Source: Candidatus Babelota bacterium
GTDB lineage: Bacteria; Babelota; Babeliae; Babelales; Vermiphilaceae
Direction: 5' to 3'
DNA: 64,000 nucleotides
Assembly: GCA_013287855.1 (NCBI GenBank)
Contig: JABDCY010000001.1
Coordinates: forward strand, 2,277-66,276
Positions within the stretch are counted from its first letter, which is position 1. Every line of letters starts with the position of its first letter. Positions 38,937 through 61,848 of the stretch are shown here, piece after piece. Made by a program: the position numbers and the translations under genes. A model generated the notes under the pieces. The model ran no database searches, was not told the origin of the DNA, and worked only from the letters and a program-made list of their open reading frames with translations.

Positions 38937-38937
38937 T

Positions 38938-40020: not shown

Positions 40021-40034
40021 AGCTCCTCCTTCTG

Positions 40035-41315: not shown

Positions 41316-43267
41316 TTAATCCCATGAACTAATAAATTCTGCAATGCCCACAAGTGATAGGAATAATCCGGCGAACCAGGTTTCTGATTTTTGTTGAACA
41401 TAGTTTCAATAACCTTGATATCAAAATAATCTTTCATAGCATTGCGTGGATCATGCAACAAATCGTTAAAATATGGTTTAAAATAATGGCCTTCTTTGAA
41501 CCAGCGCGTAGTTGGTGCAGCAAAGCCCATTTTTTTACGATAAATTACATCATGAGGCAAAATTCCCTCGCATGCTTTTTTAAGAATATATTTGGTAATA
41601 CCGTTTTTAAATTTAAGTTCTTGGGGAATTTGTAAGGCAAATTCAACGAGCTTGTGATCCAAAAAAGGCACCCGCCCTTCTACCGAGGTTGCCATGGCCA
41701 TTTTGTCAACGCGCATAAGCAACAATTCTGGTAAGCGATGCTTAAGCTCCAAATAAATCATGGTTTTTAAAAAATCAGCGTGCGGATCTTGAGCAAGTAA
41801 CTTGGCCCGATGATAAGCTGCCAAGAAATGACTATCAAATCCTTGTTCAAAGCCTGGATAAATAGCTTCAACAATTGGGTCAAAAGGAGCATCCGTCATG
41901 TTCACAAATGTTTTTTTCCACTCTTCACCAAATACTACCGTGCCGCTCCAGAACAGTGCACGGTCGTGCGCCCAATTATTAAGTACTGCTAAGCGACTAT
42001 ATTTTTCGGGAAATATGGTAGAAGCTGCCGAATAGCATGCGCGGCGAGCAAAAGCAGGAATATAATTTTGTGTTACATGCCATGACTTTTGCATGGAAAG
42101 ATATTGCCCATAAAAACTGTAGCCACAGAATAGTTCATCAGACCCTTCACCAACTTGCACCACGGTAACGCCAGAATCCTTGAGTAGTTTGGCAACATAA
42201 TAGAGCGGAACACATACACAATCACCAATCGGTTCGTCCTGGAAATAGACCATGCGCTCAAAAAAATCGAACGCCTCTTTTTCTGAGATAATTATTTCAT
42301 GATGGTTGGTATTAAAATGGCGCGCTACTTTGCGTGCCCAATCAATTTCGTTATATTCCGGCCCATCAGAAAATGCGACGGTAAAGGTATTAATATCGGT
42401 AATAACTTCTGCCATCAACGCAACATTCAAACTAGAATCGATACCACCTGATAAAAAAACACCAAACGGAACATCAGACATCATCTGCTGTTGTATGGCG
42501 TTGCGCAAAAGGGTACGAATTTGGCGTATACAAAACTGTTCATCGGAAAGTAATGTTTTGTCATATTCGATGGCCGGTTTTACAGGAGAATACCATTCAT
42601 GGAACGTAATGTTTTTGTGCGCATCAACCTTGCAATAAAAACTTGCGGGCAATTTGTAGATGCCTTCATACAACGTCATAGGTGCCGGCGTGGCCAAATA
42701 CGTTAAATAATGATATAGCGCATCCTGCTTAATCTGCCTTTGGATCCAGGGCAATTGCCACAACGCTTTAATTTCTGAAGCAAAGCTCAGCACGCCGCCT
42801 TGTAGAGAAAAATATAAGGGCTTTATGCCAATGCGGTCACGAATGAGAAAAAGTTCTTGCGTTCTAAAATCAAAAATGATGATGGCAAACATCCCATCAA
42901 AGCGATCAAGAGCTTTAATGCCCCATTCTTTATAGGCATGTAAAATAGTTTCCGTGTCAGAATTTGAGCGATAGGTATAGCCAAGATCTTGCAGTTGTTG
43001 TTTCAGCTGTGGATGATTATAAATTTCTCCATTGCAGCAAACAAGAACAGTATGTTCTTCATCAATCATGGGCTGAAACCCAGCTTGGGATAAATCCATG
43101 ATGCTCAGTCGACGATGCGTAAGGCCAAGTTGGTGCTCTTGAGAAGTCCAGATGCGATAGCCATCGGGGCCGCGGTGCGCAAGACTTGCTTGCATAGCCT
43201 CAAGCAGTGCACTATCTACAACAAAAGATGATCGTGAGATATTAAAGAAACCAGCAATACCACACAT
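41312..43267 (-). CDS. asnB: asparagine synthase (glutamine-hydrolysing) family amidotransferase
   Basis: N-terminal nucleophile MCGIAGFF, PP-loop FLSGGIDSS, 651 aa. Confidence 0.9.
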   Translation of the reverse strand: MCGIAGFFNISRSSFVVDSALLEAMQASLAHRGPDGYRIWTSQEHQLGLTHRRLSIMDLSQAGFQPMIDEEHTVLVCCNGEIYNHPQLKQQLQDLGYTYRSNSDTETILHAYKEWGIKALDRFDGMFAIIIFDFRTQELFLIRDRIGIKPLYFSLQGGVLSFASEIKALWQLPWIQRQIKQDALYHYLTYLATPAPMTLYEGIYKLPASFYCKVDAHKNITFHEWYSPVKPAIEYDKTLLSDEQFCIRQIRTLLRNAIQQQMMSDVPFGVFLSGGIDSSLNVALMAEVITDINTFTVAFSDGPEYNEIDWARKVARHFNTNHHEIIISEKEAFDFFERMVYFQDEPIGDCVCVPLYYVAKLLKDSGVTVVQVGEGSDELFCGYSFYGQYLSMQKSWHVTQNYIPAFARRACYSAASTIFPEKYSRLAVLNNWAHDRALFWSGTVVFGEEWKKTFVNMTDAPFDPIVEAIYPGFEQGFDSHFLAAYHRAKLLAQDPHADFLKTMIYLELKHRLPELLLMRVDKMAMATSVEGRVPFLDHKLVEFALQIPQELKFKNGITKYILKKACEGILPHDVIYRKKMGFAAPTTRWFKEGHYFKPYFNDLLHDPRNAMKDYFDIKVIETMFNKNQKPGSPDYSYHLWALQNLLVHGIK

Positions 43268-43268
43268 A

Positions 43269-43964
43269 CTACGTCCTTATGTTATCAATTCTCCACACGC
43301 ATATTCGTTTACCGTGTCGTTTCATTTCTGGCTCAGCTGAAAGTTCTTCGAATGATATAATTGGTTCAGGAAAATTAAAAGGTTCTTTTTGCAAGTTTAT
43401 CGGACGATAATCGCCAGTCCGAATATCACAATCATTTGCAATTATACGAGTAAAGTTTGAAGTAAACAAATAGGTGATGCCGCTTTGTTTAAAATTGCGG
43501 ATCGTTTGCATAATTTCATTATATGATAAATGAATTAAACAATCTCGACATAGTACGGCTTCAACTTTTGGTAGATGATCACGCGTGATATCTAAGCACA
43601 AAAAGCAGCGTTGCTCATTGCCATAACGCGCCTGATTGCGATCGATAAGATCGGCAACAATATCAACACCAATATAGAGATCAAGATCGAGGTTAAGCTC
43701 TTTCATCCAATTAAAATCTCCGCAACCTGCATCAAGAATTGTATGAATATTAAGCAATGTAGTCATAGCAGGCAACATCGTGCGCAAACTTTTGGTAGCT
43801 TCAAGGGTTGAGCCTGGCCCAGAACAAGATTCTGTTTCTTTCCAGTGATTGGACTGATAGATATAGTTGAAAACCTGTGATCGCCAGAAGTCTGAATTCT
43901 CTGCTGCTTCATGGGCAATGAGTGCTCGATGACTCAGACAGATGAGTATTAACAATTTCTTCAC
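43269..43964 (-). CDS. class I SAM-dependent methyltransferase with N-terminal leader
   Basis: GTG start after AAGGAG. Leader MKKLLILICLSHRALIA. Motif I ILDAGCGDFNWM. Confidence 0.65.
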   Translation of the reverse strand: MKKLLILICLSHRALIAHEAAENSDFWRSQVFNYIYQSNHWKETESCSGPGSTLEATKSLRTMLPAMTTLLNIHTILDAGCGDFNWMKELNLDLDLYIGVDIVADLIDRNQARYGNEQRCFLCLDITRDHLPKVEAVLCRDCLIHLSYNEIMQTIRNFKQSGITYLFTSNFTRIIANDCDIRTGDYRPINLQKEPFNFPEPIISFEELSAEPEMKRHGKRICVWRIDNIRT

Positions 43965-44142
43965 ACATTACTCCTTGGAGCTTCTTTTCTAGTATTCGTG
44001 CAGCTTAGCAATCACAAACAACTACGTAAAGAATGGACGGTAATCAATTTTTTTATACCAAGGCTTGCAATTTACATAGCATTCCATGTTTCATGAGTTG
44101 CGTTGAGTAGTTTTTTTACCATTCATACTCAAGGAGAAGCTC

Positions 44143-44625
44143 ATGAAATATGGAGTGAACTTCAGATCGAGATATGTATTAATTGCACTATTTTTGCTAC
44201 CTGCATTGCAAGCCATGGATCATGTCAAAACTATATTCGAGGTATTTGATGAGGAGCCGCCAAAAAATCTTGATTGGGAAACTTTAACATCAAACAATGC
44301 AACATCAAGAAGCCGTTCAAATTCGGAAACATTACCCACACAACGTAACGGAACCATTCCACAACACTGGCGCCAACTTAATCAGCAATATACAGATAAT
44401 TTATTAAGAAAATTAACCGCCGAGGAACTTAGAAATCGCGAACTACAACGTCAATTGGATGAGCTAAAACAACAATTAGATGCTACAACTAACCATCTCG
44501 CCACGGCACAGAAAAAAATTAGCGAGCTCACTAATCCTGAAGATTTAGAATCACAAAAAAAGACACAAGCAGGAAAGACAAGAAGGCATACTTACGGTCT
44601 TGTCAAGAACCGGAGCGGTGAGTAA
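44143..44625 (+). CDS. secreted coiled-coil hypothetical protein
   Basis: AAGGAG SD, leader RYVLIALFLLPALQA, heptad-like ELRNRELQRQLDELKQQLD. Confidence 0.5.
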   Translation: MKYGVNFRSRYVLIALFLLPALQAMDHVKTIFEVFDEEPPKNLDWETLTSNNATSRSRSNSETLPTQRNGTIPQHWRQLNQQYTDNLLRKLTAEELRNRELQRQLDELKQQLDATTNHLATAQKKISELTNPEDLESQKKTQAGKTRRHTYGLVKNRSGE

Positions 44626-45347
44626 ACAAGGCGCAGATAAACCAGCGTAGCAAGCATGCGCGGTCCTGAACTCATAAAGCGCAATTTGCTGCCCGTCTGA
44701 TCATACCACACGGTGGGAATTTCTTTGGTGCCAAATCCATACTTTTTACACAGATACAAAAGTTCAACATCAAAAGCCCATTGTTTAAGCCGCATCGAAG
44801 AAACTACTTTTTCGATAACTTCTCGCTTAAACACCTTTGCACCACATTGGTAATCATGGTAGTTAATTCTGAACAATAATCGCACCAATGATTCATAGAA
44901 CAGTTTGCTGCCCCACCGCTTGATGCGCGGTCGCGGCGGAAAGAGTTTTGCTGCGGGCGCATACCTGCTTGCAATAGCTCCATGATGCGTTGACAAATGC
45001 GGAATCAATTCATAAAAATATTCTGGCCGTGTTGCCATGTCAGCATCCACAAATCCGATCATGGTATTATGCCGCGTGAGCGCATCAGCAAAACCAGCAA
45101 TCACCGCAAGGCCTTTGCCAGCTTCAGGGCTAACAATGCTGCGAATTTCTGAACCCCACAGTCTTTGGGCGTCGTCCACAACACGTTGCGTGTTATCGGT
45201 GCAGCCGTTGAGCACTACCAGAATTTCAAAATCAAGCTGTTCTTCTTGTTTTTTTTGCATAAAAAATTGAGCATACGCATCGAGCGTTTTACCAATGCGT
45301 TGCTCTTCGTTATGGGCAGGAATAATAATGCTAATTTTTTTCATCAT
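44592..45347 (-). CDS. GT2 glycosyltransferase (dolichyl/polyprenyl-phosphate glucosyltransferase-like)
   Basis: ISIIIPAHNEEQRI, VVLNGCTDNT and FVDADMATRPE. The track ORF starts at GTG 45356. Confidence 0.8.
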   Translation of the reverse strand: MMKKISIIIPAHNEEQRIGKTLDAYAQFFMQKKQEEQLDFEILVVLNGCTDNTQRVVDDAQRLWGSEIRSIVSPEAGKGLAVIAGFADALTRHNTMIGFVDADMATRPEYFYELIPHLSTHHGAIASRYAPAAKLFPPRPRIKRWGSKLFYESLVRLLFRINYHDYQCGAKVFKREVIEKVVSSMRLKQWAFDVELLYLCKKYGFGTKEIPTVWYDQTGSKLRFMSSGPRMLATLVYLRLVYSPLRFLTRP

Positions 45348-46305
45348 CTTGTTCACTTGATGGCAGCAAGTTATAGATACCCGTGCTGGCAGTACCTAAA
45401 ATTCCTGTCCATTTTACATACCAAGGAATTCTAGCGACTATTGTGCGAAGTGGATTTTCTTCATCGAGCCTAGATGATTGCGTATCCACAAGCAACAAAA
45501 CTCCTGAAACGGTAAGCCAACTAAGACCTCGTGGAACTGAAGAGGAATTTAATTTTTTTGGTTGCCGATGGGGTGAGAGTTTTTTTGTCACGCTTTCTAC
45601 AGGTTCCCTTATAGCCGAACTCATTTGTGCACGTTGGTCTTTCTTTTTTTGTGTTAAATCTTTTAAGGCTATAACTGAAGTTTGGTAGATCAAAGATTTC
45701 TGCCCGACTTTATCACCCCAAGCTTCTCTATCTTTTAGAATAATTGGATTTAGAAATTGTTCGACGCTGGAACACACGGTTTTAACATCTTCATCGGTAT
45801 AATCTTGAGGCACAACTACTTTGAATGGCGTTTTGCTGCTAGCCTCCACCATAGAAGTGTTTATTAATGGAATGAATTCTGATTTTTGATAAGGATCTTG
45901 ATCATCATCCCCTTCATATTCAGTCCACAACGTTATAAAATTTTCAGAATCATTAATTTCTTTTTTTTCGAACAATGTTTCAATATGGGTATTTTCTTGT
46001 GCAAGTAAGTTTTGAACTGCAGTACCAACGTCTTTTAATTTAGAAGAAAGATGCTGCACCCTGCCATTTTGTTGTGCATCAAAATCTTTGAGCAGCGGTT
46101 TTGATGTAATAAAAATTCTATCGGTCGGCTCTAACCCCACATTGATTAATTTTGAAAGTCTTTGCTGCTTTGTCTCACCGTAGATCTCTAGTCTTTTAAA
46201 ATTCCCCGATTGTCTGTGCATACTTTGAGACATCATTCCAATGCTCAGACCACAGGTCAAAATAAGCACAGCGAAAATTTTAGACATCTGCATGTTGCAC
46301 CTCAT
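45331..46305 (-). CDS. hypothetical protein with N-terminal leader and C-terminal hydrophobic segments
   Basis: ATGA overlap with the upstream gene. Leader SKIFAVLILTCGLSIG. C-terminal LSWLTVSGVLLLV and WTGILGTASTGIY. Confidence 0.5.
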   Translation of the reverse strand: MRCNMQMSKIFAVLILTCGLSIGMMSQSMHRQSGNFKRLEIYGETKQQRLSKLINVGLEPTDRIFITSKPLLKDFDAQQNGRVQHLSSKLKDVGTAVQNLLAQENTHIETLFEKKEINDSENFITLWTEYEGDDDQDPYQKSEFIPLINTSMVEASSKTPFKVVVPQDYTDEDVKTVCSSVEQFLNPIILKDREAWGDKVGQKSLIYQTSVIALKDLTQKKKDQRAQMSSAIREPVESVTKKLSPHRQPKKLNSSSVPRGLSWLTVSGVLLLVDTQSSRLDEENPLRTIVARIPWYVKWTGILGTASTGIYNLLPSSEQDDEKN

Positions 46306-47747
46306 CGCATTTTGAATTTTTTAAGCCCAATCAAACTCATGCATGCCAACAAAACTCCTCCCTGAAATCTGCTAATTTGCGAGGTTCCATATGCTCTGCT
46401 TTTGTAATGCACGGGCATATCAACAATTTTGAGGTTAAGTTTAGCAGCACCAAAAAGTAAATCAAAGTCGCCGTACGGATCAAAATCACCAAAATAGTGA
46501 CGATTGGCAACAATCGCCTCGTAATCCTTTTTAAACAGCACCTTGGTGCCGCAAAGCGTATCTTTGATTTTTTGATTCAACAACCAGGTGAAAATGAGTG
46601 AAAATCCATAATTGGCAAGCAGATTCAAAAACCGCATCGCTTGATTTTCCATGCCATACACAAGGCGTGAGCCGTTGATGAAATCTCCTTTGCCACGCAT
46701 GAGAGCATCAAAAAATTTCGGCATTTCTTCTGGCGGTGTCGTAATGTCACCATCCAAAATCATAAGAACATCGCCGCGTGCATGTGCAAAACCTTTGCGG
46801 ACCGCGTCGCCCTTTCCTTTGCCATCTTGCACAATATACTTGATATCTTTTTCTGGATATGTGGCAATTACCCGCTTGATTTCATCCAAAGTACCATCTT
46901 TGGAATGGCCTTCTGCAAAAATAAATTCGGTGTGTTTACCCATGATAGGTGTTTGCGTGATTGCAGCTTCCACATTGCCCCGCTCATTGCGGCAGGTAAT
47001 TATTACCGACACCACATAATCACGCGGATTACGTGCAACAGGAAGTGGACGTGCAACCACCCACTCATGCAAACAGAGACGATTGATGCCGGGAATAAGT
47101 GCCAGAATACTATTGAAGAACCAAGAAATTAACGGAATATTAATAGGTATCAACGTATGCCATCCCGTAATCACGGGTTCAAAATCAGCAAGATGCAAAA
47201 AATTAATCAGATCTTTGTGGGCAATCCAATTTTTGAAGGTGGTGGGTCGCCGCAAGCCTAATTTTTGAGTAAGTCGTAGCAGCGGCTCCCAAAAATAGGA
47301 ATACGAATCGATCACGAGCCGAGTGCCGGGGTGACAAAATGGTTGAAGGGACACAAAAAGATCTTGGATGTCATACGTTTCTAGAGTGATAGAAGAAAGA
47401 ATGATGTAATCAAATTGTTGTGCAGAAATTTGTGCAAGATCAGTAACAAAAGTCAAATGTGGATACGTCGCCTGAGCTTCGTGCGTGTACTGCTCATCAG
47501 CATCCACACCCACACCCCATGAAGGACGCACCGCATCGAGCACATAGCCATTTTTACCATTGATTTGCAGTACTCGCCTGCCTTGTGGAATCACAAAGGT
47601 ATAAAATTTGAGCAGCTGCTTATGGTAATAGCTATTTTTTTTGAGCCAATATGAAAATGGCTGATGCCAGGTACTGCGATTATTATTTTTTACAGATTGG
47701 TCACCCAGAAGCGCTGTTTTTTGGTGATTTGACTGTTTTTGCATCAT
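46302..47747 (-). CDS. bifunctional methyltransferase-like / GT2 glycosyltransferase fusion
   Basis: N-terminal half has a class I MT-like layout (RRVLQINGKNGYVLDAV...FDYIILSS). C-terminal half has VSVIITCRNERGNVE and ILDGDITTPPEE (GT2). ATG at 47747; the ORF is open to TTG 47795. Confidence 0.7.
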   Translation of the reverse strand: MMQKQSNHQKTALLGDQSVKNNNRSTWHQPFSYWLKKNSYYHKQLLKFYTFVIPQGRRVLQINGKNGYVLDAVRPSWGVGVDADEQYTHEAQATYPHLTFVTDLAQISAQQFDYIILSSITLETYDIQDLFVSLQPFCHPGTRLVIDSYSYFWEPLLRLTQKLGLRRPTTFKNWIAHKDLINFLHLADFEPVITGWHTLIPINIPLISWFFNSILALIPGINRLCLHEWVVARPLPVARNPRDYVVSVIITCRNERGNVEAAITQTPIMGKHTEFIFAEGHSKDGTLDEIKRVIATYPEKDIKYIVQDGKGKGDAVRKGFAHARGDVLMILDGDITTPPEEMPKFFDALMRGKGDFINGSRLVYGMENQAMRFLNLLANYGFSLIFTWLLNQKIKDTLCGTKVLFKKDYEAIVANRHYFGDFDPYGDFDLLFGAAKLNLKIVDMPVHYKSRAYGTSQISRFQGGVLLACMSLIGLKKFKMR

Positions 47748-47848
47748 TATTACCTTGGTTCGGTTGATTTTTTGATCTTTCAGTATTGAAATCAATATTA
47801 AAATAAATTTCTTCCAAACATTCTCAAAGGAGCTTGATAAACCACTCG

Positions 47849-48013
47849 TTTGTCATCCTGAACTTGTTTCAGGATCCATCTCTCATAATCATCCTGATTT
47901 TAACAAATCAGAAAAATATCTAATGCATATACATTTTTAATAAAATTAATTTTACAATGCACACTCACTGGTAATTTGAAGCGTGGATCCTGAAACAAGT
48001 TCAGGATGACAAA
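47849..48013. mobile_element. MITE-like element, 165 bp, perfect 30-bp terminal inverted repeats
   Basis: tttgtcatcctgaacttgtttcaggatcca (47849-47878) is the exact reverse complement of 47984-48013. Each arm contains its own palindrome (atcctgaa/ttcaggat). The core is AT-rich and 105 bp long, with no ORF. Confidence 0.8.
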
Positions 48014-48069
48014 TCTGGGGCATTCGAAACTTAATGTCAAAATATGGAAATTTTAGCAAGATTTCACTA

Positions 48070-48504
48070 TCAGATTGTCACAATTAAATCAATAGAAAAT
48101 TCTGGGTAGATTTTTTTTACCATCGACATCATTTTTAAACTTGGATTACATTTTTTGGTCTCAAGTCGCTGATAGCTATACAGGGTGTCAAATCCCATTT
48201 TCATCGCCGCTTCTTTTTGGGTATAGCCATGCTTGATTCGCCAATACCTAACCAAAAATGAAAAAGCTATATTAGGATCCAATGAAACGTCGACGATTTT
48301 TTTTGCACTTCTTTTTACTGTTTTTTGAGGAAGCTTTGCCAAGTCCTTGGAGTTTGCATGTTCTTCGATAAAAAGATTCAAAGCTTCTTTCATGTTAGTT
48401 TCTAGTTCTTGCAACGTATCAGCTTGAGTAACGCAACCAGGTAATTCAACGCATTGCGCCCAAAATCCGCCATCTTCTTTATGTATTTGGAAATGATATT
48501 TCAT
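48070..48504 (-). CDS. hicB: HicB-like antitoxin fused to an XRE-type HTH domain, no adjacent HicA
   Basis: MKYHFQIHKEDGGFWAQCVELPGCVTQADTLQELETNMKEAL (HicB/UPF0150 fold) plus a C-terminal YTQKEAAMKMGFDTLYSYQRLE HTH. Confidence 0.75.
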   Translation of the reverse strand: MKYHFQIHKEDGGFWAQCVELPGCVTQADTLQELETNMKEALNLFIEEHANSKDLAKLPQKTVKRSAKKIVDVSLDPNIAFSFLVRYWRIKHGYTQKEAAMKMGFDTLYSYQRLETKKCNPSLKMMSMVKKIYPEFSIDLIVTI

Positions 48505-48662
48505 AAACTCTTCCACTTACCGGCATCTAATATCTCCTCATCTACAAAACATGATACCAAGTATAATTGGTAGGTCAAATACCTTGCCGAACTGCGTAGA
48601 CGGTAGTAGGTTAAAAAACATCTACCGACTATGATATACCATTATTATGCGAGGATTTCAGT

Positions 48663-49361
48663 ATGCAAAAAAAAGAAACCTTGGCAATAATGATTCTACT
48701 TATTTCTGATAGTCACCAGGTGATGACTATGGATCAAGCAACAAAAACAACAGAAGAACTTCAAAAAGAAAACCTGACGTTACGAGCTACTCTCGAAGAA
48801 TTACAACGAGGCACACAACAAATATTAGAAACTACTAGAGCTGTGCAAAAAGAACTTTCTGCTTTGCCGCGCACAATTTCCCTCAAGACAGACATGAGTA
48901 AACTCGAAGGTCGATTAGAAAAAGCAGAACATGATATTTTGGCGATTCCCACATTACAGGGTCAGCAAGAAACAACCAAGAAAGAAATACAGCAGTTACA
49001 AGGTGCTACAAAAAACGTTGGTGCCACCGAACAAAAAGTTGTGAATTTGGAAATTCAGTTCCGTGATCTTCCTCAATTGCGCGACCATTGTACGCGGCAT
49101 CAAAAATTAGAAGACGACATTCTTGACTGGCAAGCCCATCAACGCTTTCTGGGTGCCATCAATGCAAAAAATCCCCAAAACGAATTAGAAATCTATACAT
49201 TGAAACTCGGTAAAATCTATACTCAGTTGCGACTGCAGGAATTGGGCGATAAAATTGCCGAAACGCAAGGTAAAGAGAAAGAGCTTCCTCAGCAAAAGTC
49301 GGTAATTGGATTTTTGAAAGATTTCATGTTCGGTACAGAAAAAAAATTGGATGAGATATGA
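48663..49361 (+). CDS. secreted coiled-coil hypothetical protein
   Basis: Leader KKETLAIMILLISDSHQ; long heptad-like Q/E/L-rich sequence. Confidence 0.5.
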   Translation: MQKKETLAIMILLISDSHQVMTMDQATKTTEELQKENLTLRATLEELQRGTQQILETTRAVQKELSALPRTISLKTDMSKLEGRLEKAEHDILAIPTLQGQQETTKKEIQQLQGATKNVGATEQKVVNLEIQFRDLPQLRDHCTRHQKLEDDILDWQAHQRFLGAINAKNPQNELEIYTLKLGKIYTQLRLQELGDKIAETQGKEKELPQQKSVIGFLKDFMFGTEKKLDEI

Positions 49362-49660
49362 AGAAGTTACTGTTGTTTACTCTATTTTTTATGCACAGCA
49401 ATTTTTGCATGCAAACTAAGAAACAAATAAAACTTGTTTTTACGCAAGAAGATTTTGCGGCATTATCGCACATGCCACAAGCAGAACTTCTATCAGCGTG
49501 TAAAGATCTCATGCAAAATTATAATATCTTATACGGTGAAGCAACTACATTGGTCGATTTAGCTGAACGCTCTAAGAAACTCCTGCAACAAACGATCGCA
49601 GAAAATGCTCGGCTGAAAACGTTGGTAAGCCTGAGCGCTGACAAAGAAAATCAACATTAA
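49358..49660 (+). CDS. small secreted hypothetical protein
   Basis: ATGA-type overlap with the upstream gene. Leader MKKLLLFTLFFMHSNFC. Confidence 0.5.
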   Translation: MKKLLLFTLFFMHSNFCMQTKKQIKLVFTQEDFAALSHMPQAELLSACKDLMQNYNILYGEATTLVDLAERSKKLLQQTIAENARLKTLVSLSADKENQH

Positions 49661-50520
49661 CCAACCGCAGGTTTGGCATTCGTCATCTTTTCACCCAAAA
49701 ATCGCACATAATATTCGGTTGGGTTCAAGTTTGAGGCAACCCTGGTTTGCGCACATACTTTATCAAGCGCGAGAATCTTTTTAGGGAACGGTGACTTTTG
49801 CCAGTTTTCAAAATGACAGTACGCGGGCGACAACGCTTTGGTTGGTGGATTGTTGATAAAATAGCGGTTCAAATGACTTTCATCATTAAACACCGCAACA
49901 AATCCCCGGGCCACATCGGTATCCACATTGTTCATAGTCGTGCGCACAAGACGCAAAAATTCTTCACGCGTGCCGCCGTAAAATCCACCCGCAAAATAAA
50001 ATCTACCCTCATTGCGATGAATGCATGCAGTGGAAATTGGATTGGTTTCATAGATACCACGCTCAAACAAAAATTGCGGATGGCGCACGCCGACCCGATC
50101 GCTCAAAATTTCATCACCAATCGGCGCATTAAAGAGCATGTCAGCATCAATGGCAAACAGATAATCCATGTTCGCTAATTTTTCTTGATTATTATAATAC
50201 GCATGGAAGCGCATCATGGTCGCCCATGGCCAGCCCATTTGCACCTGTGGGACTTTTACTACTCGCGGATGTTCTGGAGGAGTTCCGTCAGTGAAAATAA
50301 AATAAGTCACATTGTGATGGGTACAAAAATAACGATCGGCACTTTCGATGAGCGGAGCAACAAAGTTGATATATTTGCCGGTTGCGGTAATCAAAAGACC
50401 AATATTTTGTTTTTTTGTGGTGTCTGCACAAAATTTCTCTGGATCTTCTGGCTTGTGTCGAGCGGCAAAGAGAAAAACGCCTACAAGTAATGTGATTGTT
50501 GTCATAATAATTTTGTTCAT
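49657..50520 (-). CDS. GT6-family glycosyltransferase (histo-blood-group ABO / alpha-1,3-Gal(NAc)-transferase-like), type II anchor, DXD retained
   Basis: Collinear with the human GTA catalytic domain as recalled: [34 protein letters not shown] / [38 protein letters not shown] / [32 protein letters not shown] / [45 protein letters not shown] / [25 protein letters not shown]. N-terminal anchor [14 protein letters not shown]. Confidence 0.85.
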   Translation of the reverse strand: [287 protein letters not shown]

Positions 50521-50560
50521 AACTTGAGTCCTTTATTTGATTCAGCTTTGTTTTTTGTCC

Positions 50561-50723
50561 CCTTCGTGGTGAGCATAGTCGAACCATAACACCGAATTTT
50601 AGTTATGAAAATTTGAAATCAGTATTTTTAAGATGAGTTGTATCTTGAAATAGCACTTAATTTTTTCAGCAAATTGCTGCTTACATGAGTTCGTAATGGT
50701 TCGACTATGCTCACCACGAACGG
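50561..50723. mobile_element. MITE-like arrangement: two inverted 28-nt REP-like units flanking a 108-bp AT-rich core
   Basis: ccttcgtggtgagcatagtcgaaccat (50561-50587) versus atggttcgactatgctcaccacgaacgg (50696-50723), with 25 nt of exact inverted identity. Confidence 0.7.
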
Positions 50724-51178: not shown

Positions 51179-51823
51179 TTATTTACGTACCATGATAATT
51201 TGGTAGCCAGTTACATACACACGCCATCCTTTTTGTCGTAAATAATAAATCACTAATTCTCCTTTACCACCGTGCACCAAACCACAATCATCAATCATTA
51301 CCACAGCATTGGGTGATAACTTATCATAGGCAGCTTCAATTTCGTATAAATGATGTAATTGCGATGGCAAGGGATTATTTCCATCAAAATCAAAACTATC
51401 TAAGTACAGAAAATCGATAGGTTTATCAAAATTTTTTAAAAAATGTACTGAATCATTTACTATAAGATGCACATTGTTTTCACTTCCTGGGAATAACATG
51501 GTGCGTGCATTTTCTACGGCTACAGGATTAATGTCAACAGAGTATAAGTCAGCTTGATGTAAAGCACTCCAGTAGCCAAAAAGAACGGTAAAACCACCAT
51601 TACTGTCAAACACCCCTTCTTTATCTCTGGTCGTTCCTGTTTCTACAATTGTTTTTACATGACGCTCGGTCATCAAGTGTGCCGCAACCTCAAAGGTTAC
51701 GCGCCGGTCATTATGAACTTTGCTTCGTATAAAGGCGAGGGCAGAATCTAGTGAGCTGTACGCATCTTGAACGCATACTAATACATAAAAACTCGCTGCC
51801 ATTATCTTAAATTTAACATTCAT
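51179..51823 (-). CDS. class I SAM-dependent methyltransferase-like protein with N-terminal leader
   Basis: ATG at 51823 after GAGGAA. Leader MNVKFKIMAASFYVLVCVQDAYS. IVETGTTRD, LYSVDINP and DFLYLDSFD give a Methyltransf_24-like layout. Confidence 0.55.
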   Translation of the reverse strand: MNVKFKIMAASFYVLVCVQDAYSSLDSALAFIRSKVHNDRRVTFEVAAHLMTERHVKTIVETGTTRDKEGVFDSNGGFTVLFGYWSALHQADLYSVDINPVAVENARTMLFPGSENNVHLIVNDSVHFLKNFDKPIDFLYLDSFDFDGNNPLPSQLHHLYEIEAAYDKLSPNAVVMIDDCGLVHGGKGELVIYYLRQKGWRVYVTGYQIIMVRK

Positions 51824-52009
51824 CACTATATTCCTCATTAGAAAAACTATCAAAAACACAGTTAAAACCATTAAGTTTGCCAGAAACACTATTCATACAT
51901 TAATTGGATGTCAATTGGTTTTTTTGTATCACACATGCACAATTTTTACTTGGCGCTCTAATCTGCTATCCTAAAAAAGGTCGTTGATTAGCAATTTTCA
52001 GGATCATTA

Positions 52010-52675
52010 ATGCAAATTCTTAAAGCTCACGAAATTTTATTGTTCATCAAACCATACTTGCCCGATTATCCCGTTATCGTAGAAGCGGGAGCCTTTAATG
52101 GCCGTGACACGCGGCGCCTAGCCACCTTTTGGCCACAAGGCACCGTGCATGCATTTGAACCGGTGCCTGAAATTTTTGCACAACTGAAATCGAATTCTGC
52201 ACATTTATCTAACGTGCATTGTTATCAACTAGCACTCAGCAATTCCACTGGCACTGCCACATTTAATGTCTCTGAAAATCCCCACAAGCCTGGTGCGCCC
52301 TATCCTGCAGGCTCTCTGCTCACGCCAAAAGAACGGTTACAATTTTCATCGGCGCAGTACCCAAAAAAAATTCAAGTTCCAACAACAACACTTGATGACT
52401 GGGCACAAAAATACAAGATTAGTCATGTGGATTTTTTATGGTTAGATTTGCAAGGCCATGAACTTGCCGTTATGCAAGCAGCACCACAAATCTTACAACA
52501 GGTGAAAATTATTTTTACCGAAGTAGAATTTGTGCAAGCCTATGAAGGTTGTCCGCTCTATCATGAAGTACAACAGTGGCTTGAAGCACACGGTTTTGTG
52601 GCCATCGCAAAGGATTTTGAAACGACCAGCGGATGGTTTTTTGGCAATATGGTGTTCAAGCAAACAAAGAATTGA
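52010..52675 (+). CDS. FkbM-family methyltransferase
   Basis: VIVEAGAFNGRDT...VHAFEPVPEIFAQL...ALSNSTGTATF...VDFLWLDLQGHELAVM matches the FkbM family pattern. No leader. Confidence 0.75.
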   Translation: MQILKAHEILLFIKPYLPDYPVIVEAGAFNGRDTRRLATFWPQGTVHAFEPVPEIFAQLKSNSAHLSNVHCYQLALSNSTGTATFNVSENPHKPGAPYPAGSLLTPKERLQFSSAQYPKKIQVPTTTLDDWAQKYKISHVDFLWLDLQGHELAVMQAAPQILQQVKIIFTEVEFVQAYEGCPLYHEVQQWLEAHGFVAIAKDFETTSGWFFGNMVFKQTKN

Positions 52676-52738
52676 TTTTATAGTGATATATTGTAATTTA
52701 GAATGCAGAAATTTTAATTAGAAAAAAGGAGCATGTTT

Positions 52739-53740
52739 ATGAAAAGATCAAGACTCATCTTGTCGTATATTGTTATTTTCTTATTCGCCCACGTTAGCCA
52801 TTGCATGTCTCATGACCCAAGTTTACGCATTGACCGCGTTGTCCTTTGGGGCTGCAAACATTTTTCTGATACTTTTGCCTACGTCAATTTTGCCTTCGCT
52901 AAAGCGTTCAAGCATCTTGGCTATGAAGTCTTGTGGCTCGACAATAATGACCGTATAGATCATATTAATCTCGCACATTCTCTCATTTTAGGAGTCGGCC
53001 ATGTCGATCAAAATATACCTTTGCGTGACGATTGTTATTATGTGCTGCACAATTGTGATCTGACCAAATACGACTCTTTGTATAAGGCAAACAAATGTCT
53101 TGTCTTACAGGTTTACGTTAACGATATTCTCACGCGTGATGTGGAATATATTGCCGACTGCGTGTACTATCAACCTTCGTTAAAAACACTGTACCAGCCT
53201 TGGGCAACTGATCTACTGCCCCATGAAATCGATAGTATCAAACTACAGCTAACAACTAAAAAAAACAAAGAATCTGTCGTCTATTGGGTTGGCACCATAT
53301 GGGATGGCTTATTTGGTAATCGAGATAAACTCAGTCGCTTTGAAAGCGCCTGCAACAAAGCAGGAGTACGCTTTGAACATCTCGCTAATATACGTTTGGA
53401 GCAAAATATCAATTTCATGCAAAAATCTTTTCTAGCACCTGCAATTCAAGGACAATGGCAATGTGAGAAAGGCTATATCCCATGCCGTATTTTTAAAAAC
53501 ATCAGTTATGGTGCTCTTGGCATAACTAATTCAGAAACTGTCTATAATTTATTTAAAAGAAAAATAGTTTATAATCCCGACACGTATCAACTTTTTTTTG
53601 ATGCTTTTGAACGTGCAAAAACAATCACCTTGGAAGAACAATATGAACTTATGGATTTTGTAAAAGAACATCATACCTATTTAAATCGTATCGAACGAAT
53701 TTTTCAGTTTCTTGCACGTTTGCAACAAACAACACATTAA
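52739..53740 (+). CDS. hypothetical protein with leader, possible glycosyltransferase
   Basis: ATG at 52739, 7 nt after AGGAG. Leader MKRSRLILSYIVIFLFAHVSHC. The C-terminal half (VYWVGTIWDG...RIFKNISYGALGITNS) loosely resembles the GT-B C-domain. Assignment is weak. Confidence 0.3.
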   Translation: MKRSRLILSYIVIFLFAHVSHCMSHDPSLRIDRVVLWGCKHFSDTFAYVNFAFAKAFKHLGYEVLWLDNNDRIDHINLAHSLILGVGHVDQNIPLRDDCYYVLHNCDLTKYDSLYKANKCLVLQVYVNDILTRDVEYIADCVYYQPSLKTLYQPWATDLLPHEIDSIKLQLTTKKNKESVVYWVGTIWDGLFGNRDKLSRFESACNKAGVRFEHLANIRLEQNINFMQKSFLAPAIQGQWQCEKGYIPCRIFKNISYGALGITNSETVYNLFKRKIVYNPDTYQLFFDAFERAKTITLEEQYELMDFVKEHHTYLNRIERIFQFLARLQQTTH

Positions 53741-53753
53741 TTGAGGAGATATA

Positions 53754-54578
53754 ATGAATAAAAATATTTTTTTTATCCTAGCAGTCATCAGCTATCCATA
53801 TTTAGCAGCTACCGGTATTACGCTTAAAACTGGTAATCGAAACAGCTATATAGGTATGTTCAAACCCACAGATAAAAATTTACAAGGCTTAAAATTTGGC
53901 AATTGGGGAAGCCGTCCCTATGAATATGCCTGGGTCAGTTCACTTGCTTCGGTCGAAGGCAAACGAGTAATCGATTTGGGGGTAGGTATACCTTCACACT
54001 ATAACTGGTATCAATATGTCGTCGAACAGTTAAAGCCTGCATTTTATGCGGGAGTAGACCTTGATGAACGCATCAAAGATCAGCTTCTTTCGGGATCAAA
54101 TTTTGAACTTAAATATATGAATATGGCAAACCTAGAATATCCCGACAAATCATTTGATATCGCGTATTGCATCAGTACCTTTGAGCATATTCCGTACGCT
54201 GACTTCATGGGATCCATCAAGGAAGCACATCGTGTTTTGACTGATGATGGACTGCTCATCATAACCCTTGATGAAGAATGGGATAAAAATGAACCATCAA
54301 ACTACTACAATGGATGGAATACACTTGAACTAAGTCTTATGCAGCGTGGTTTTACTCGCAAGAATCGTTCATTTGGACTTCCAGAATTTATGATGCTGAT
54401 TAAAGATTACTTTGTATTATATCAAGACGACGCAATGATAGATTCAACACTAGGTATAATCTCGTCTAAGCGTGATGGATTCATTTATTATCAACGGGAA
54501 AATCGTGATAATTCAATTTTAAACAGCGGGTCAGTTATTAATAGTTGTGTAAGTTATGCTGTGCTCAAAAAAAAATAA
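53754..54578 (+). CDS. class I SAM-dependent methyltransferase with N-terminal leader
   Basis: GAGGAG SD. Leader MNKNIFFILAVISYPYLAA. VIDLGVG, FDIAYCISTFEHI and DDGLLIITLD are Methyltransf_11-like. Confidence 0.6.
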   Translation: MNKNIFFILAVISYPYLAATGITLKTGNRNSYIGMFKPTDKNLQGLKFGNWGSRPYEYAWVSSLASVEGKRVIDLGVGIPSHYNWYQYVVEQLKPAFYAGVDLDERIKDQLLSGSNFELKYMNMANLEYPDKSFDIAYCISTFEHIPYADFMGSIKEAHRVLTDDGLLIITLDEEWDKNEPSNYYNGWNTLELSLMQRGFTRKNRSFGLPEFMMLIKDYFVLYQDDAMIDSTLGIISSKRDGFIYYQRENRDNSILNSGSVINSCVSYAVLKKK

Positions 54579-54589
54579 TTTAGCTGAGG

Positions 54590-55291
54590 TTAATTTACAA
54601 GTACTTTAGCCAACTGCTGTTTAATGCAATAATTGTATGCTAAATTAATATGGACATTGCCATCGCTTAAAGTTTTATCAAGATCTCCCGCTTGTGTAGC
54701 ATAAAATTGATAAAAATCTAAAAATTTTATCCCATGCTGTGAGCAGTTGGTTTTAAGCAAACTGTTAAGCTGCTGTGTAATAAGTATGCGATCACTAATT
54801 GAACCATAGCTGGGATATTCTTTAGAAAAATCGCCGTTCATTGGTGGTACTACATTAGCAATAACGCACGTTATATAATTATAATTCTGCTTATTATTCA
54901 GTACAGTTTTAAGGTAATTATCAGCTAATGGCTGCAGAATGGAAGCTAATGGTACTTTTTGTAAATCGCGCTGTTTACCGATATGACATCTGACATCAAT
55001 CTCACCGAAAACAAAAATAACCGTATCGCCGTCTTGTATTCCCAAATCTCTTAAGTTTAATGCATTAAACCCATCGCGGCCTACGCGATGCATTGTAGTT
55101 GGTCCTAGCCAATGGATATCAAATGCCATTGAATTGGCGTTTTTATAAGCATAATAATGAGAAAAACGCCAATCCAATATTCCTTCATAAGCAAAGCAAT
55201 AAAAGGCGTGACTATCGCCAACAACGTGTATTCGTGATGCCGACAAAAAAGAGCTCATCGAAACTACGATGAGCAATAATTTTTTTCCCAT
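54590..55291 (-). CDS. SGNH/GDSL-type hydrolase (possible glycan O-acetyl esterase/transferase) with leader
   Basis: Leader MGKKLLLIVVSMSSFLSA, immediately followed by block I IHVVGDSHAF. Block II-like FVFGEIDV. Block V-like DGNVHIN. Confidence 0.55.
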   Translation of the reverse strand: MGKKLLLIVVSMSSFLSASRIHVVGDSHAFYCFAYEGILDWRFSHYYAYKNANSMAFDIHWLGPTTMHRVGRDGFNALNLRDLGIQDGDTVIFVFGEIDVRCHIGKQRDLQKVPLASILQPLADNYLKTVLNNKQNYNYITCVIANVVPPMNGDFSKEYPSYGSISDRILITQQLNSLLKTNCSQHGIKFLDFYQFYATQAGDLDKTLSDGNVHINLAYNYCIKQQLAKVLVN

Positions 55292-55421
55292 CTGCCCCCC
55301 CGGACCAAATGAATAATTGCAAATCCCTTATGTAATAACATACAAAAAAATAAATTAATTTCGCTATAGATTTATGAAAAACATATGATAGGATTGCCAA
55401 GTTACAAAAAAGGAGAAAAGA

Positions 55422-56480
55422 ATGATGAAGCCTAATAAAATATCCATTTTTATTTTTATATTTTTGACTTTGAATGGCTATTCTGCAGATGCACATCAAC
55501 CAGAATTAACGTTATGGCAAGTAAAAGTTGGTTCAGCATTGCATAAAGACTTCTTGCAAACTCTTATAAATATTTTTGGTGTTGATGTTTTTGTTGAAAG
55601 TGGGACCTATATAGGGGATAGCACCGCCATTGCAGCCACATGCTTTAAAGAGGTCCATACCATAGAATTGGGACAGCAGTTATATCAAGCCGCAAAGGAG
55701 CGTTTCAGAAATCAAGCCAATGTTCATCTCTATCTAGGTGATTCCTCAAAAGTACTGGATAAAATTCTAAAGACCCTTAAAGGAAATATTCTTTTTTGGC
55801 TGGATGGACATTATAGCGGTGGTAATACCGCTCTTGGTGATTCCAATACACCTATACTTCAGGAGCTTGCGGCAATCAAAAATTGCGGTATTACCGATTC
55901 GATTATTCTCATCGATGATATGCGACTATTCAGAAACTTCAAAAACAATTCCGATTCTAACATAAATGGTTATCCAACAATAGAAGACCTGCAACACGCT
56001 CTCTTTACTATCAATCCTCAATACCAAATTCTCATCATGGGCGATATCGCGCTCGCGTATCCACATAAATTTTTCATCGCTCTTTCACCGGTTTTGCAGG
56101 CATGCACTCAAAGCCGTTGCTCAGATAAATTTACTTTTGATCAAATTCTTGTTGCTGATAAAACTATCGGCTCAGCTAGCGGCAGCGAACGTACTGCCAT
56201 AGTAGATTTAGTACAAAGATTTCCTAATGCTAATGGATATTACCATCTTTTATATGGTCTTGTTTGTGAGCAAGAAAAATCTTATCAAGAGGCATATAAT
56301 CATTACATAACTGCACTAAACAATGAGTTCAATAACTGGCGGGCATGGTTATATGCTGCACGCGTTGCTCATAAAGTGAATAATAAACAACTCATGGAAT
56401 TGACATTGCAAGAAGCAATAAAACAACAAACAAATGTTACTAAAGAAAAATTATGGTTGGCTATAACGGAAGAAAAATAA
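55422..56480 (+). CDS. putative methyltransferase-fold protein with leader and C-terminal TPR-like helical region
   Basis: AGGAG SD. Leader KISIFIFIFLTLNGYSADA. FVESGTYIGDST (motif I-like), WLDGHYSGG, IILIDDMRLF. C-terminal YHLLYGLVCEQEKSYQEAYNHYITAL. Confidence 0.4.
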   Translation: MMKPNKISIFIFIFLTLNGYSADAHQPELTLWQVKVGSALHKDFLQTLINIFGVDVFVESGTYIGDSTAIAATCFKEVHTIELGQQLYQAAKERFRNQANVHLYLGDSSKVLDKILKTLKGNILFWLDGHYSGGNTALGDSNTPILQELAAIKNCGITDSIILIDDMRLFRNFKNNSDSNINGYPTIEDLQHALFTINPQYQILIMGDIALAYPHKFFIALSPVLQACTQSRCSDKFTFDQILVADKTIGSASGSERTAIVDLVQRFPNANGYYHLLYGLVCEQEKSYQEAYNHYITALNNEFNNWRAWLYAARVAHKVNNKQLMELTLQEAIKQQTNVTKEKLWLAITEEK

Positions 56481-56500
56481 GCCTTAAAAAAAGGATTGTA

Positions 56501-57385
56501 ATGAACGTACTCCATAAATTTTATACGATGATGCTGTGCTCAATTGTTTGTTTTGCATTAATTGACGCTAAGGAAAAAGTTCTCATTTTCACACAAGTAT
56601 ATAATCGCCCTGATTTTATTGAACTTCATGCAAAAACATTCAAAGCCTTTATGCAAGATGAGTATGAATATGTTGTTTTTAACGATGCAAATGATCCAAA
56701 TATGCAATATCAAATTGAACGAACATGTTCAAAATTAGGCATTCGATGCTTTAAAATTCCCTATAATCCAGATACTCGTCCCGGATGGCGCCATATTGCC
56801 GGAATTAAATATTCATTTGAAACCATCGGCTTTGACTTTGATGGTATCGTAATGCTCGTTGATTCCGACATGTTCTTGGTAAAACCATTTAGCGCAAATA
56901 AGTATATGGAAGGATATGATCTAATAGGCGGGGCAGATTCACGAGAGAATGACAGAATAAAAGTATCATATTTGATGCCAACTTTGGTGTTCATTAACAT
57001 GAAAACAGCGCCAAATAAACGAACTCTCAATTTTTATGGTGGCCATGTTGAAGGCCTGCCTTGCGATGTTGGTGGCCACACCTATTATTATTTAAAAAAT
57101 AATCCAACCTTGCGTTATCGTTTATTTACTTATCTATCCCTTCAAGGCCTCGTGGATAAAAATACTTCCTGGCTACAAGCGCTAGGTTTTGATGATCATT
57201 CTATTAATTTTATTCGCACAACTGATTATCATTATGGTTTTCAATTCCACGCCGAATCCTACTTCATGCATTACTACGCAGGCGGATCAAATTGGCCAGG
57301 ATACTCGCAGGATTACTTACATATAAAAAATGTAATGTTACATAATTATATCGATACGCAAATGCGCAACTATCACGTGTCATAA
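56501..57385 (+). CDS. putative GT-A-type glycosyltransferase with leader (DXD)
   Basis: ATG at 56501 after AAGGA. Leader MNVLHKFYTMMLCSIVCFALIDA. LIFTQVYNRPDFIELH, VVFNDAND and MLVDSDMFLV (DXD). Confidence 0.45.
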   Translation: MNVLHKFYTMMLCSIVCFALIDAKEKVLIFTQVYNRPDFIELHAKTFKAFMQDEYEYVVFNDANDPNMQYQIERTCSKLGIRCFKIPYNPDTRPGWRHIAGIKYSFETIGFDFDGIVMLVDSDMFLVKPFSANKYMEGYDLIGGADSRENDRIKVSYLMPTLVFINMKTAPNKRTLNFYGGHVEGLPCDVGGHTYYYLKNNPTLRYRLFTYLSLQGLVDKNTSWLQALGFDDHSINFIRTTDYHYGFQFHAESYFMHYYAGGSNWPGYSQDYLHIKNVMLHNYIDTQMRNYHVS

Positions 57386-57461
57386 TTACTTATCGGCGTA
57401 TTGTTTTCCAGAATAGTATTTACGATTTATTTGGATGCAGACATAAATTCATTTTTATGTC

Positions 57462-57491
57462 TTGACAAGGGAAGTCGCCATCGTCTATGAG
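57462..57491 (+). promoter_or_regulatory. candidate sigma70-type promoter for the 57565 gene
   Basis: TTGACA (57462-57467), an 18-nt spacer, then TATGAG (57486-57491). Preceded by hairpin agacataaa/ttatgtct. By-eye match only. Confidence 0.3.
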
Positions 57492-57564
57492 TAGAGTATA
57501 GCAAAGAAAATAGGCTATGCTTTTTCATTGTTTTCTTAAGTTAATTTTATAAAAGGATTTTGGC

Positions 57565-58266: not shown

Positions 58267-58290
58267 GCATTTTGAAAAAAATCTTAAAGC

Positions 58291-58986: not shown

Positions 58987-58997
58987 GAACGTTTTCC

Positions 58998-61834: not shown

Positions 61835-61848
61835 GCTACAACTCCAAC

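Follow-up and report, generated by a model that had tools for sequence, protein, structure and literature searches.

A GT6 Glycosyltransferase of the DXD Type in a Glycan Locus of a Candidatus Babelota Bacterium

Why does a bacterium encode an enzyme that resembles the glycosyltransferases of the human ABO blood groups, where does its gene come from, and what might the enzyme do? These questions are raised by a 64,000-nucleotide stretch of DNA from a Candidatus Babelota bacterium (contig JABDCY010000001.1; the whole stretch is referred to here as the window). A preliminary description, made from the sequence alone, had assigned one of its open reading frames (ORFs) to glycosyltransferase family 6 (GT6), with an ABO-type catalytic domain, and had read it as a vertebrate-like enzyme with a type II membrane anchor that was acquired by inter-domain transfer. 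We found that the ORF at positions 49657 to 50520 encodes a GT6 glycosyltransferase, the matches being far beyond chance. We consider it likely that the product, hereafter the query, is a functional, divalent-metal-dependent retaining glycosyltransferase of the prokaryotic DXD type, as exemplified by PaGT6 of Parachlamydia acanthamoebae, and that it is tethered to the inner membrane and belongs to a surface-polysaccharide locus.

Family assignment and catalytic site

The ORF is intact, begins with ATG, and encodes 287 amino acids. The Pfam profile Glyco_transf_6 (PF03414), a search that the preliminary description had proposed, matched the query with 151 bits (cutoff, 25 bits; E = 4.2e-44), with residues 35 to 248 covering positions 72 to 298 of the 313 profile positions. 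In a HMMER sequence search of the Protein Data Bank (PDB), the best match was BoGT6a of Bacteroides ovatus (E = 6.9e-41; 143.6 bits), followed by about 55 human ABO sequences (E of about 3e-36; 128.3 bits) and then by bovine alpha3GT. An AlphaFold2 model built from 58 homologues had a mean predicted local distance difference test (pLDDT) value of 91.6 and consists of a helix (residues 2 to 21), an unstructured linker, and a GT-A domain. When this model was compared with the PDB by Foldseek, BoGT6a ranked first, with target-normalized template modeling (TM) scores of 0.85 to 0.88 and root mean square deviations of 1.5 to 2 Å, and human GTA/GTB scored about 0.70. The assignment to GT6 with an ABO-type catalytic domain is thus sustained by profile, sequence, and fold: the predicted structure superposes on solved GT6 enzymes, but the fit to BoGT6a is better than that to human GTA. 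The NCBIfam model NF041524 of a bacterial GT6 subfamily, which we take to represent the BoGT6a type with an NXN motif (Asn-X-Asn, in place of the Asp-X-Asp or DXD motif), gave 177 bits, under its cutoff of 250; with this score and a DAD motif, the query falls outside the NXN type. No second GT6 copy was found within the window by tblastn, and a scan for promoters and terminators around the gene returned counts at the level of shuffled sequences.

The gene and its catalytic elements are as follows.
49657-50520, reverse strand: GT6 glycosyltransferase gene
50140-50148, reverse strand: DXD metal-binding motif D125-A126-D127 (translation DAD)
49984-49992, reverse strand: donor-selecting residues A177-G178-G179, equivalent to human 266-268 (translation AGG)
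49879-49890, reverse strand: F211-N212-D213-E214, including the catalytic Glu, with Phe-Asn ahead of it in place of the Trp-His of nearly all GT6 enzymes (translation FNDE)
49741-49761, reverse strand: basic pair K254...R260, which binds the diphosphate in metal-dependent GT6 enzymes (translation KVCAQTR)

Residue-by-residue mapping equated D125-A126-D127 with D211-V212-D213 of the human enzyme and with N95-A96-N97 of BoGT6a. The aligned BoGT6a segment reads DYLFFFNANLLF, and the DAD triplet sits where the human enzyme has DVD and BoGT6a has NAN, so that the DXD motif is intact at the metal site, as had been described. The earlier reading of the donor site was equally accurate: A177 and G179 correspond to human positions 266 and 268 (M266 and G268 in the human chain compared, FYYMGGFFGG) and to A155 and G157 of BoGT6a. 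The suggestion that small residues at these positions suit N-acetylgalactosamine (GalNAc) agrees with the identical Ala/Gly selector of BoGT6a, which transfers GalNAc (PMC3516806, PMC3961637). E214 corresponds to E303 of the human enzyme and E192 of BoGT6a, and a Glu was found at this position in all 141 aligned representative domains. K254 is the equivalent of K231 of BoGT6a, R260 is at least 90% conserved in our alignment A1, and the Lys/Arg pair is present in 89 aligned representative domains. Its six-residue spacing equals that of K359 and R365 in alpha3GT (PMC3961637).

A bacterial GT6 enzyme with an intact DXD motif has been characterized. Thiyagarajan et al. (2012) expressed PaGT6, which needs Mg2+ or Mn2+, transfers GalNAc, and is inactive on N-acetyllactosamine (PMC3516806). 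Pham et al. (2014) restated this metal dependence and tied it to the DXD motif (PMC3961637). Starting from the family, fold, aligned motifs, gene context, and taxonomy reported here, and reading metal dependence, donor, linkage, acceptor, and membrane side across from homologues, we propose the following reaction. D125 and D127 would hold Mn2+ or Mg2+, which would bridge the diphosphate of the uridine diphosphate (UDP)-sugar; K254 and R260, located on a mobile C terminus, would close over the donor; and E214 would serve as the essential catalytic carboxylate. Ala177 and Gly179 would leave space for an N-acetyl group. UDP-GalNAc would be the likeliest donor, because the Ala/Gly selector is that of the GalNAc-transferase BoGT6a and PaGT6 also transfers GalNAc, with UDP-galactose (UDP-Gal) as a possible alternative. 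The reaction would be a retaining alpha-1,3 transfer onto a beta-Gal or beta-GalNAc residue.

Clade membership and origin

To place the query, we used as the homologue set the best 120 of 1,218 matches in a protein collection clustered at 90%. The metal site of all 120 relatives is of the DXD type (DAD in 118 and DSD in 2). When each GTDB species was represented by a single genome, at least 263 loci with GT6 relatives turned up, the closest of which was 52 to 59% identical. Among the best 79 of these loci, about 24 were labeled Chlamydiota (Parachlamydiaceae, Rhabdochlamydiaceae, Simkaniaceae, and others), about 16 Dependentiae/Babeliales, about 10 "Pseudomonadota," and 4 Verrucomicrobiota, with the rest unclassified; some of the metagenome-assembled genomes (MAGs) labeled "uncultured Pseudomonadota," such as CAZKLV010000001.1, are probably in truth Dependentiae. 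A phmmer search over 1.84 billion representatives at 50% identity retrieved 2,451 clusters at E values of 1e-3 or below and 353 at 1e-30 or below. For the 150 top-scoring proteins, the GT6 domains that aligned at the motif had DxD at the metal site in 144 cases and NxN in 6. With this number of clusters and a clade made up mainly of Chlamydiota and Dependentiae, GT6 is not a mostly vertebrate family in present sequence data, contrary to what the preliminary description had presupposed. Its two further premises do not stand either. Characterized bacterial GT6 enzymes are not all metal-independent NXN proteins, since PaGT6 has DXD and depends on Mg2+ or Mn2+ (PMC3516806, PMC3961637), and the bacterial NXN enzymes, which form the third group of Thiyagarajan et al., do possess a membrane element in the form of a C-terminal basic-hydrophobic-basic (BHB) domain that binds the membrane (PMC3516806). 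We found no literature on GT6 in Dependentiae.

A neighbor-joining (NJ) tree was computed from the 120 matches and five references; it was midpoint rooted, carries no support values, and represents the vertebrates by one human sequence. In this tree, the query lies deep inside the environmental clade, nearest to the relatives P0002 to P0006. Human ABO, BoGT6a, and the GT6 proteins of cyanophage P-SSM2 and a Synechococcus phage are all outside the 120-member clade, to which the human sequence is sister. Over the trimmed columns, the query is 40% identical to human ABO, 40% to BoGT6a, 36% to the P-SSM2 protein, and 46% to a huge-phage GT6. It shares 52% identity with the GT6 of Candidatus Protochlamydia phocaeensis (Parachlamydiaceae).

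These data bear directly on the possibility that the gene is eukaryote derived, i.e., a vertebrate-like GT6 that kept its type II layout and was passed on recently between domains of life, with amoebae or giant viruses as the setting. The query and the vertebrate enzymes do have the DXD motif and the C-terminal K...R pair in common, the human sequence is sister to the environmental clade in the tree without support values, and three giant-virus MAGs carry GT6 genes. Horizontal transfer linking the vertebrate enzymes with prokaryotic GT6 of the DXD type has also been proposed in the literature, yet in the direction from prokaryote to vertebrate (PMC3516806). The query, however, is no closer to the eukaryotic enzymes: its identity to human ABO and to BoGT6a is the same, the sequence score (143.6 versus 128.3 bits) and the fold comparison both favor BoGT6a, and the phylogeny nests it in a bacterial DXD clade. 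This clade is huge, and the query shares no more than about 36% identity with the giant-virus copies. The N terminus leaves the first 71 profile positions unmatched and resembles the signal style of the window, and there is no sign of recent transfer, given a normal GC content and a gene order that is conserved in related genomes (see below). A eukaryotic derivation is thus largely refuted, and we give it hardly any weight. The proposed amoeba or giant-virus milieu holds in a weaker sense only, in that the named carriers belong mainly to the Dependentiae and Chlamydiota, two lineages known in culture as inhabitants of protists; the cultured Dependentiae are obligate intracellular parasites of protists (PMC6561590).

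A comparison with the known enzymes delimits the group to which the query belongs. (i) PaGT6, from Parachlamydia acanthamoebae (Hall's coccus), is likewise a bacterial DXD-type GT6 from an amoeba-dwelling organism, and the clade of the query holds GT6 proteins of Parachlamydiaceae. PaGT6, compared here by its published description, consists of a minimal catalytic domain without a BHB domain, whereas the query comes from another phylum (Dependentiae) and carries a longer N-terminal extension (hydrophobic segment and linker, about 38 residues) and a C-terminal tail of about 30 residues. This tail, which follows K254 and contains a modeled helix (residues 267 to 281), is not markedly basic. (ii) BoGT6a (PDB 4AYJ and 4CJ8) shares with the query the minimal GT-A domain, the Ala/Gly donor site, the catalytic Glu, and the Lys but differs in having Asn-Ala-Asn, in being metal independent, and in binding the membrane by its C-terminal BHB domain instead of an N-terminal helix. 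(iii) Human GTA/GTB have about 40% identity over the catalytic domain, the DXD motif, the catalytic Glu, and the signature FY-x-x-GG-F-x-GG in common with the query. Vertebrate GT6 enzymes differ in possessing a cytoplasmic tail, a transmembrane helix, and a long stem; the query lacks human Trp300, His301, and Thr245 and lies outside the vertebrate branch. (iv) The GT6 of cyanophage P-SSM2 is a minimal DXD-type protein that was grouped in the same clade as PaGT6 (PMC3516806), but it has no N-terminal hydrophobic segment and lies outside the Chlamydiota/Dependentiae clade. By these comparisons, the query adds a member with an altered acceptor site to the published group of prokaryotic DXD-type GT6 enzymes.

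GT6 genes were also seen in viral sequences and in fusion proteins. The genomes LR745206.1 (634.8 kb) and LR756502.1 (642 kb), labeled "uncultured phage," encode GT6 proteins without signal, 48% and 43% identical to the query, respectively, and the former is the closest outgroup of the bacterial clade in the NJ tree. Giant-virus MAG contigs (L127, L128, and L148) carry GT6 proteins of about 36% identity, and 127 loci in IMG/VR encode GT6 relatives. Five metagenomic representatives (P0305, P0242, P0253, P0243, and P0249) are multidomain GT6 fusions. One of these, of 1,081 residues, has the arrangement Galactosyl_T-GT11-GT6 and might, as a single polypeptide, assemble an A/B-type trisaccharide; others combine two GT6 domains with a GT2 domain (1,191 and 1,263 residues) or are GT6-GT2 and GT2-GT6 proteins with signal-like N termini. 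A Rosetta-stone link of the GT6-GT2 fusions to the GT2 genes of the window was considered, but blastp revealed no specific similarity, so that the fusions speak for a general GT6-GT2 coupling only.

The glycan locus

The window is part of a bacterial chromosome, as it encodes leucyl-tRNA synthetase (LeuRS), ribosomal protein S1, serine hydroxymethyltransferase, and a DEAD-box helicase. Its LeuRS has hundreds of relatives at 69 to 81% identity; those that are named, at 69 to 73% identity, are all Candidatus Babeliales or Candidatus Dependentiae, which places the organism in the Dependentiae (TM6). The GT6 gene lies within a glycan locus of about 30 kb that contains at least six methyltransferases beyond a methyltransferase-GT2 fusion (MT-GT2). 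The neighboring features, assigned by Pfam where a family is named, are listed below. Signal-like N termini were called by a crude heuristic of our own; the syntenic core spans 34178 to 47795.
34178-35485, forward strand: Wzx-family flippase, syntenic core
37412-38323, reverse strand: GT2, syntenic core
38938-40020, reverse strand: GT4-like, syntenic core
40035-41315, reverse strand: GT4, syntenic core
41312-43267, reverse strand: AsnB-type amidotransferase, syntenic core
43269-43964, reverse strand: methyltransferase, syntenic core, signal-like N terminus
44592-45356, reverse strand: GT2, syntenic core
45331-46305, reverse strand: 324-residue ORF with no assigned family, syntenic core
46302-47795, reverse strand: MT-GT2, directly downstream of GT6 in the closest relatives
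47796-49656, both strands: 1.9-kb stretch parting GT6 from MT-GT2 (ORF list and Pfam)
48070-48516, reverse strand: HicB-like antitoxin ORF, in the 1.9-kb stretch
48663-49361, forward strand: 232-residue ORF with no significant family match, in the 1.9-kb stretch
49358-49660, forward strand: 100-residue ORF, in the 1.9-kb stretch
51179-62952, both strands: tailoring half of the locus, with four methyltransferases, a GDSL esterase, a GT61, two NAD-dependent epimerase/dehydratases, and several unassigned ORFs
59680-60936, reverse strand: GT61 glycosyltransferase (PF04577; E = 1.3e-22), signal-like N terminus
60923-61834 and 61849-62952, reverse strand: NAD-dependent sugar epimerase/dehydratases (a Polysacc_synt_2 dehydratase and an RmlD-like epimerase/reductase), signal-like N termini

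Four contigs (L084 to L087) that carry the close relatives P0003 (74% identity) and P0004 (69%) show the order GT6, MT-GT2, GT2, ..., AsnB, GT4, GT4-like, and GT2, which matches that of the window. The flippase is next in order on the P0004 contigs, and the P0003 loci stop short of that point. All genes through the last GT2 are on one strand in these contigs, and GT6 and MT-GT2 are only 15 to 20 bp apart. The 1.9-kb stretch is not present there and looks like a local insertion into the operon. Other neighbors of the GT6 gene are found again beside GT6 in as many as 23 of the 79 related loci. The gene has a GC content of 0.433 and a third-codon-position GC content (GC3) of 0.420, compared with an ORF mean GC of 0.398 (standard deviation, 0.031), which places it within about 1.1 to 1.4 standard deviations of the window ORFs. 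Because GC and GC3 are normal and the gene order is kept in relatives, the gene is, as judged from composition and synteny, a resident part of the surface-polysaccharide locus and not a recent arrival.

Several further observations concern this region. Contigs L084 to L087 contain a second GT6 paralogue of 239 residues, located 6 to 8 kb from the orthologue and directly behind a GT2 gene, and two GT6 loci were seen in several other MAGs (e.g., L002/L033 and L055/L059). GT61 is otherwise mainly a eukaryotic family found in plants and animals, and its member in the window is the second eukaryote-style glycosyltransferase in the GT6 locus. The tandem ORFs 58291-59001 and 58998-59717 gave no Pfam or NCBIfam match; the former was considered as a divergent GT6 and rejected (hhalign probability of 0.2 against alignment A1). 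Two hairpin-forming inverted repeats flank the GT6 region, one at 47849-48013 (perfect arms of 30 nucleotides, 105 nucleotides apart) and one at 50560-50723, just upstream of the GT6 start (arms of 31 nucleotides, 94% complementary, 102 nucleotides apart). The arm motif of the latter, GTGGTGAGC-TAGTCGAACCA, recurs at 5900-5923, 6766-6789, and 13900-13923, with 0 occurrences expected by chance; two of these sites are in gaps between the listed long ORFs, and the third is at the start of ORF 13897-14439. This recurrence suggests a dispersed element resembling repetitive extragenic palindromes (REP) or miniature inverted-repeat transposable elements (MITE).

Membrane side and acceptor

The remaining part of the query that lies outside the catalytic domain is its N terminus.
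50458-50520, reverse strand: hydrophobic segment (residues 1 to 21; modeled helix 2 to 21) that looks like a Sec-type signal peptide or a signal anchor, with a linker of about 17 residues behind it

This segment is absent from the GT6 profile match, positions 1 to 71 of PF03414, N-terminal to the catalytic domain, being unmatched. An equivalent segment is borne by 95 of the 120 relatives, in which, typically, an n-region of 2 to 7 residues with about 1.8 Lys/Arg and hardly any acidic residues precedes a hydrophobic core whose commonest length is 15. The subclade of the query has a longer core of 17 to 19 residues, a linker of about 17 to 19 residues, and, behind the core, a flank with as many basic residues as the n-region or more, so that the orientation of the segment in this subclade is ambiguous as judged by the flanking charges. 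Many shorter Chlamydiota-type relatives have AXA-like motifs directly ahead of the first beta-strand (e.g., ...SGIEA|ANVGLL; inspected by eye). Signal-like N termini were called for 28 of the 61 long ORFs of the window (46%), in agreement with the 44% of proteins predicted to have signal peptides in the cultured Dependentiae member Chromulinavorax destructans (PMC6561590). Because of this similarity among the window ORFs and its agreement with the cultured species, the N-terminal layout reads as a habit of the lineage and not as a eukaryotic relic. The type II anchor of the preliminary description is therefore real as a hydrophobic helix but is not of the vertebrate type.

In the arrangement that we favor, the N-terminal helix would tether the query to the inner membrane, and the catalytic domain would act on the cytoplasmic face; there it and the neighboring GT2 and GT4 enzymes would work on a lipid-linked repeat unit, which would then be exported by the Wzx-family flippase. 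The GT6 would thereby form part of a large, heavily methylated surface-polysaccharide locus. Placement on the cytoplasmic face is the most conservative assumption.

Several observations weigh against this proposal. (i) The acceptor site is altered, with human Trp300-His301 replaced by Phe211-Asn212, Gly/Ser235 by Gln149, and Thr245 by Ile156. The acceptor is contacted or stacked by this Trp in every solved GT6 (PMC3516806), and its loss could mean that activity and specificity deviate more than we assume. (ii) The N terminus of the query has the shape of an export signal, with a Lys-bearing n-region and a hydrophobic core of 17 residues, and in the shorter relatives the segment looks like a cleavable signal peptide; a cleavable signal would leave the catalytic domain beyond the cytoplasm, in surroundings that offer a free-living bacterium no UDP-sugars. 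(iii) The 1.9-kb insert sets the GT6 gene apart from its operon partners in the window.

The changes in the acceptor site are a property of the subclade. Phe-Asn and Gln149 are common to the query and its five nearest relatives, in which position 156 is Ile, Met, or Leu. The Phe-Asn signature occurs in 7 of the 120 best relatives, including all of P0001 to P0006, whereas Trp-His is kept in 77, and the His-Gly-Ser/Thr signature is retained by 71; most Chlamydiota-type relatives have Trp-His, Gly, and Ser/Thr where the query has Phe-Asn, Gln, and Ile. One could thus regard the query as a decayed or repurposed GT6, noncatalytic or hydrolytic after the loss of the acceptor-stacking Trp, given that W300F and H301N are accompanied by changes at two more acceptor-contact positions. 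The ORF, however, is intact; the DXD motif, the catalytic Glu, K254, and R260 are all present; and the model is confident. Six relatives at 66 to 74% identity keep the same substitutions, suggesting selection instead of decay, and we regard loss of function as very unlikely. Because four acceptor-contact positions have changed in the subclade, an acceptor other than Fuc-alpha1,2-Gal is to be expected, and the acceptor is probably not this H antigen. No GT11 fucosyltransferase was detected in the glycan locus by the Pfam and NCBIfam scans.

The signal-like N termini give rise to a different view of where the enzyme works. The segment could be a true Sec signal, either cleaved or serving as an N-in anchor, and the query would then act in the periplasm, at the cell surface, or in the host, using nucleotide sugars supplied by the host to modify glycoconjugates of the host or the surface of the bacterium itself; the same would apply to the other cofactor-dependent enzymes of the locus that bear signals. 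The Lys/Arg-containing n-regions and hydrophobic cores of most relatives, as well as the AXA-like sites in the shorter ones, are consistent with export. So are the existence of signal-bearing GT6-GT2 fusions and the calls for 14 of the 23 ORFs at 43 to 64 kb, including S-adenosylmethionine (SAM)- and NAD-dependent enzymes. C. destructans, with its high proportion of signal peptides, lives in the host cytoplasm, and secreted effectors have been inferred for it (PMC6561590). Opposed to this, the signal calls rest on our own heuristics, the longer core and basic flank leave the orientation ambiguous in the subclade of the query, and the syntenic GT2, GT4, AsnB, and Wzx-family flippase are classic cytoplasmic-face machinery without signals. 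The core GT2, GT4, and AsnB genes at 37 to 47 kb have no signal-like N termini. Furthermore, we know of no precedent for periplasmic Leloir glycosylation. We therefore consider export of the enzyme unlikely, though it is the one alternative that merits retention.

The conserved cysteines of the query were inspected in this context. Cys235 (codon at 49816-49818) is present in all 120 relatives, Cys66 (50323-50325) in 108, and Cys166 (50023-50025) in 81. They are specific to the clade: Met, Tyr, and Leu take the places of Cys66, Cys166, and Cys235, respectively, in human ABO and BoGT6a. Their co-occurrence revealed no clean pair that would suggest a disulfide.

Signal-like N termini were called for most of the tailoring enzymes, e.g., at 43269-43964 (reverse strand), 53754-54578 (forward), 57565-58266 (forward), 59680-60936 (reverse), 60923-61834 (reverse), and 61849-62952 (reverse). 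The signal-bearing enzymes of the 43- to 63-kb region comprise SAM methyltransferases, the two NAD-dependent epimerase/dehydratases, the GT61, the GDSL esterase, and the GT6. A broader form of the export idea, doubtful and somewhat less probable than export of the query itself, is that the GT6 and most tailoring enzymes (SAM methyltransferases, NAD-dependent dehydratases/epimerases, and GT61) form a Golgi-like, signal-anchored set outside the bacterial cytoplasm. Exported cofactor-dependent enzymes would be sensible only for a cell that is bathed in host metabolites. If true, this set would be fed by UDP-sugars, SAM, and NAD(P) of the host and would remodel the bacterial surface or host glycans.

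For the family, a bacterial GT6 with an intact DXD motif has already been published and assayed once, as PaGT6, and the query adds one more. New in detail are the replacement of Trp-His by Phe-Asn in its subclade and the finding that many of the cofactor-dependent enzymes in the locus carry export-like signals. The large DXD clade supplies the sampling to test the published proposal that the vertebrate ABO-type enzymes descend from a metal-dependent GT6 of prokaryotes. For the Dependentiae, the rebuilt acceptor site of the subclade implies that the product may differ from the blood-group A glycan, and the export-like signals pose a testable question as to the site of glycosylation in these bacteria.

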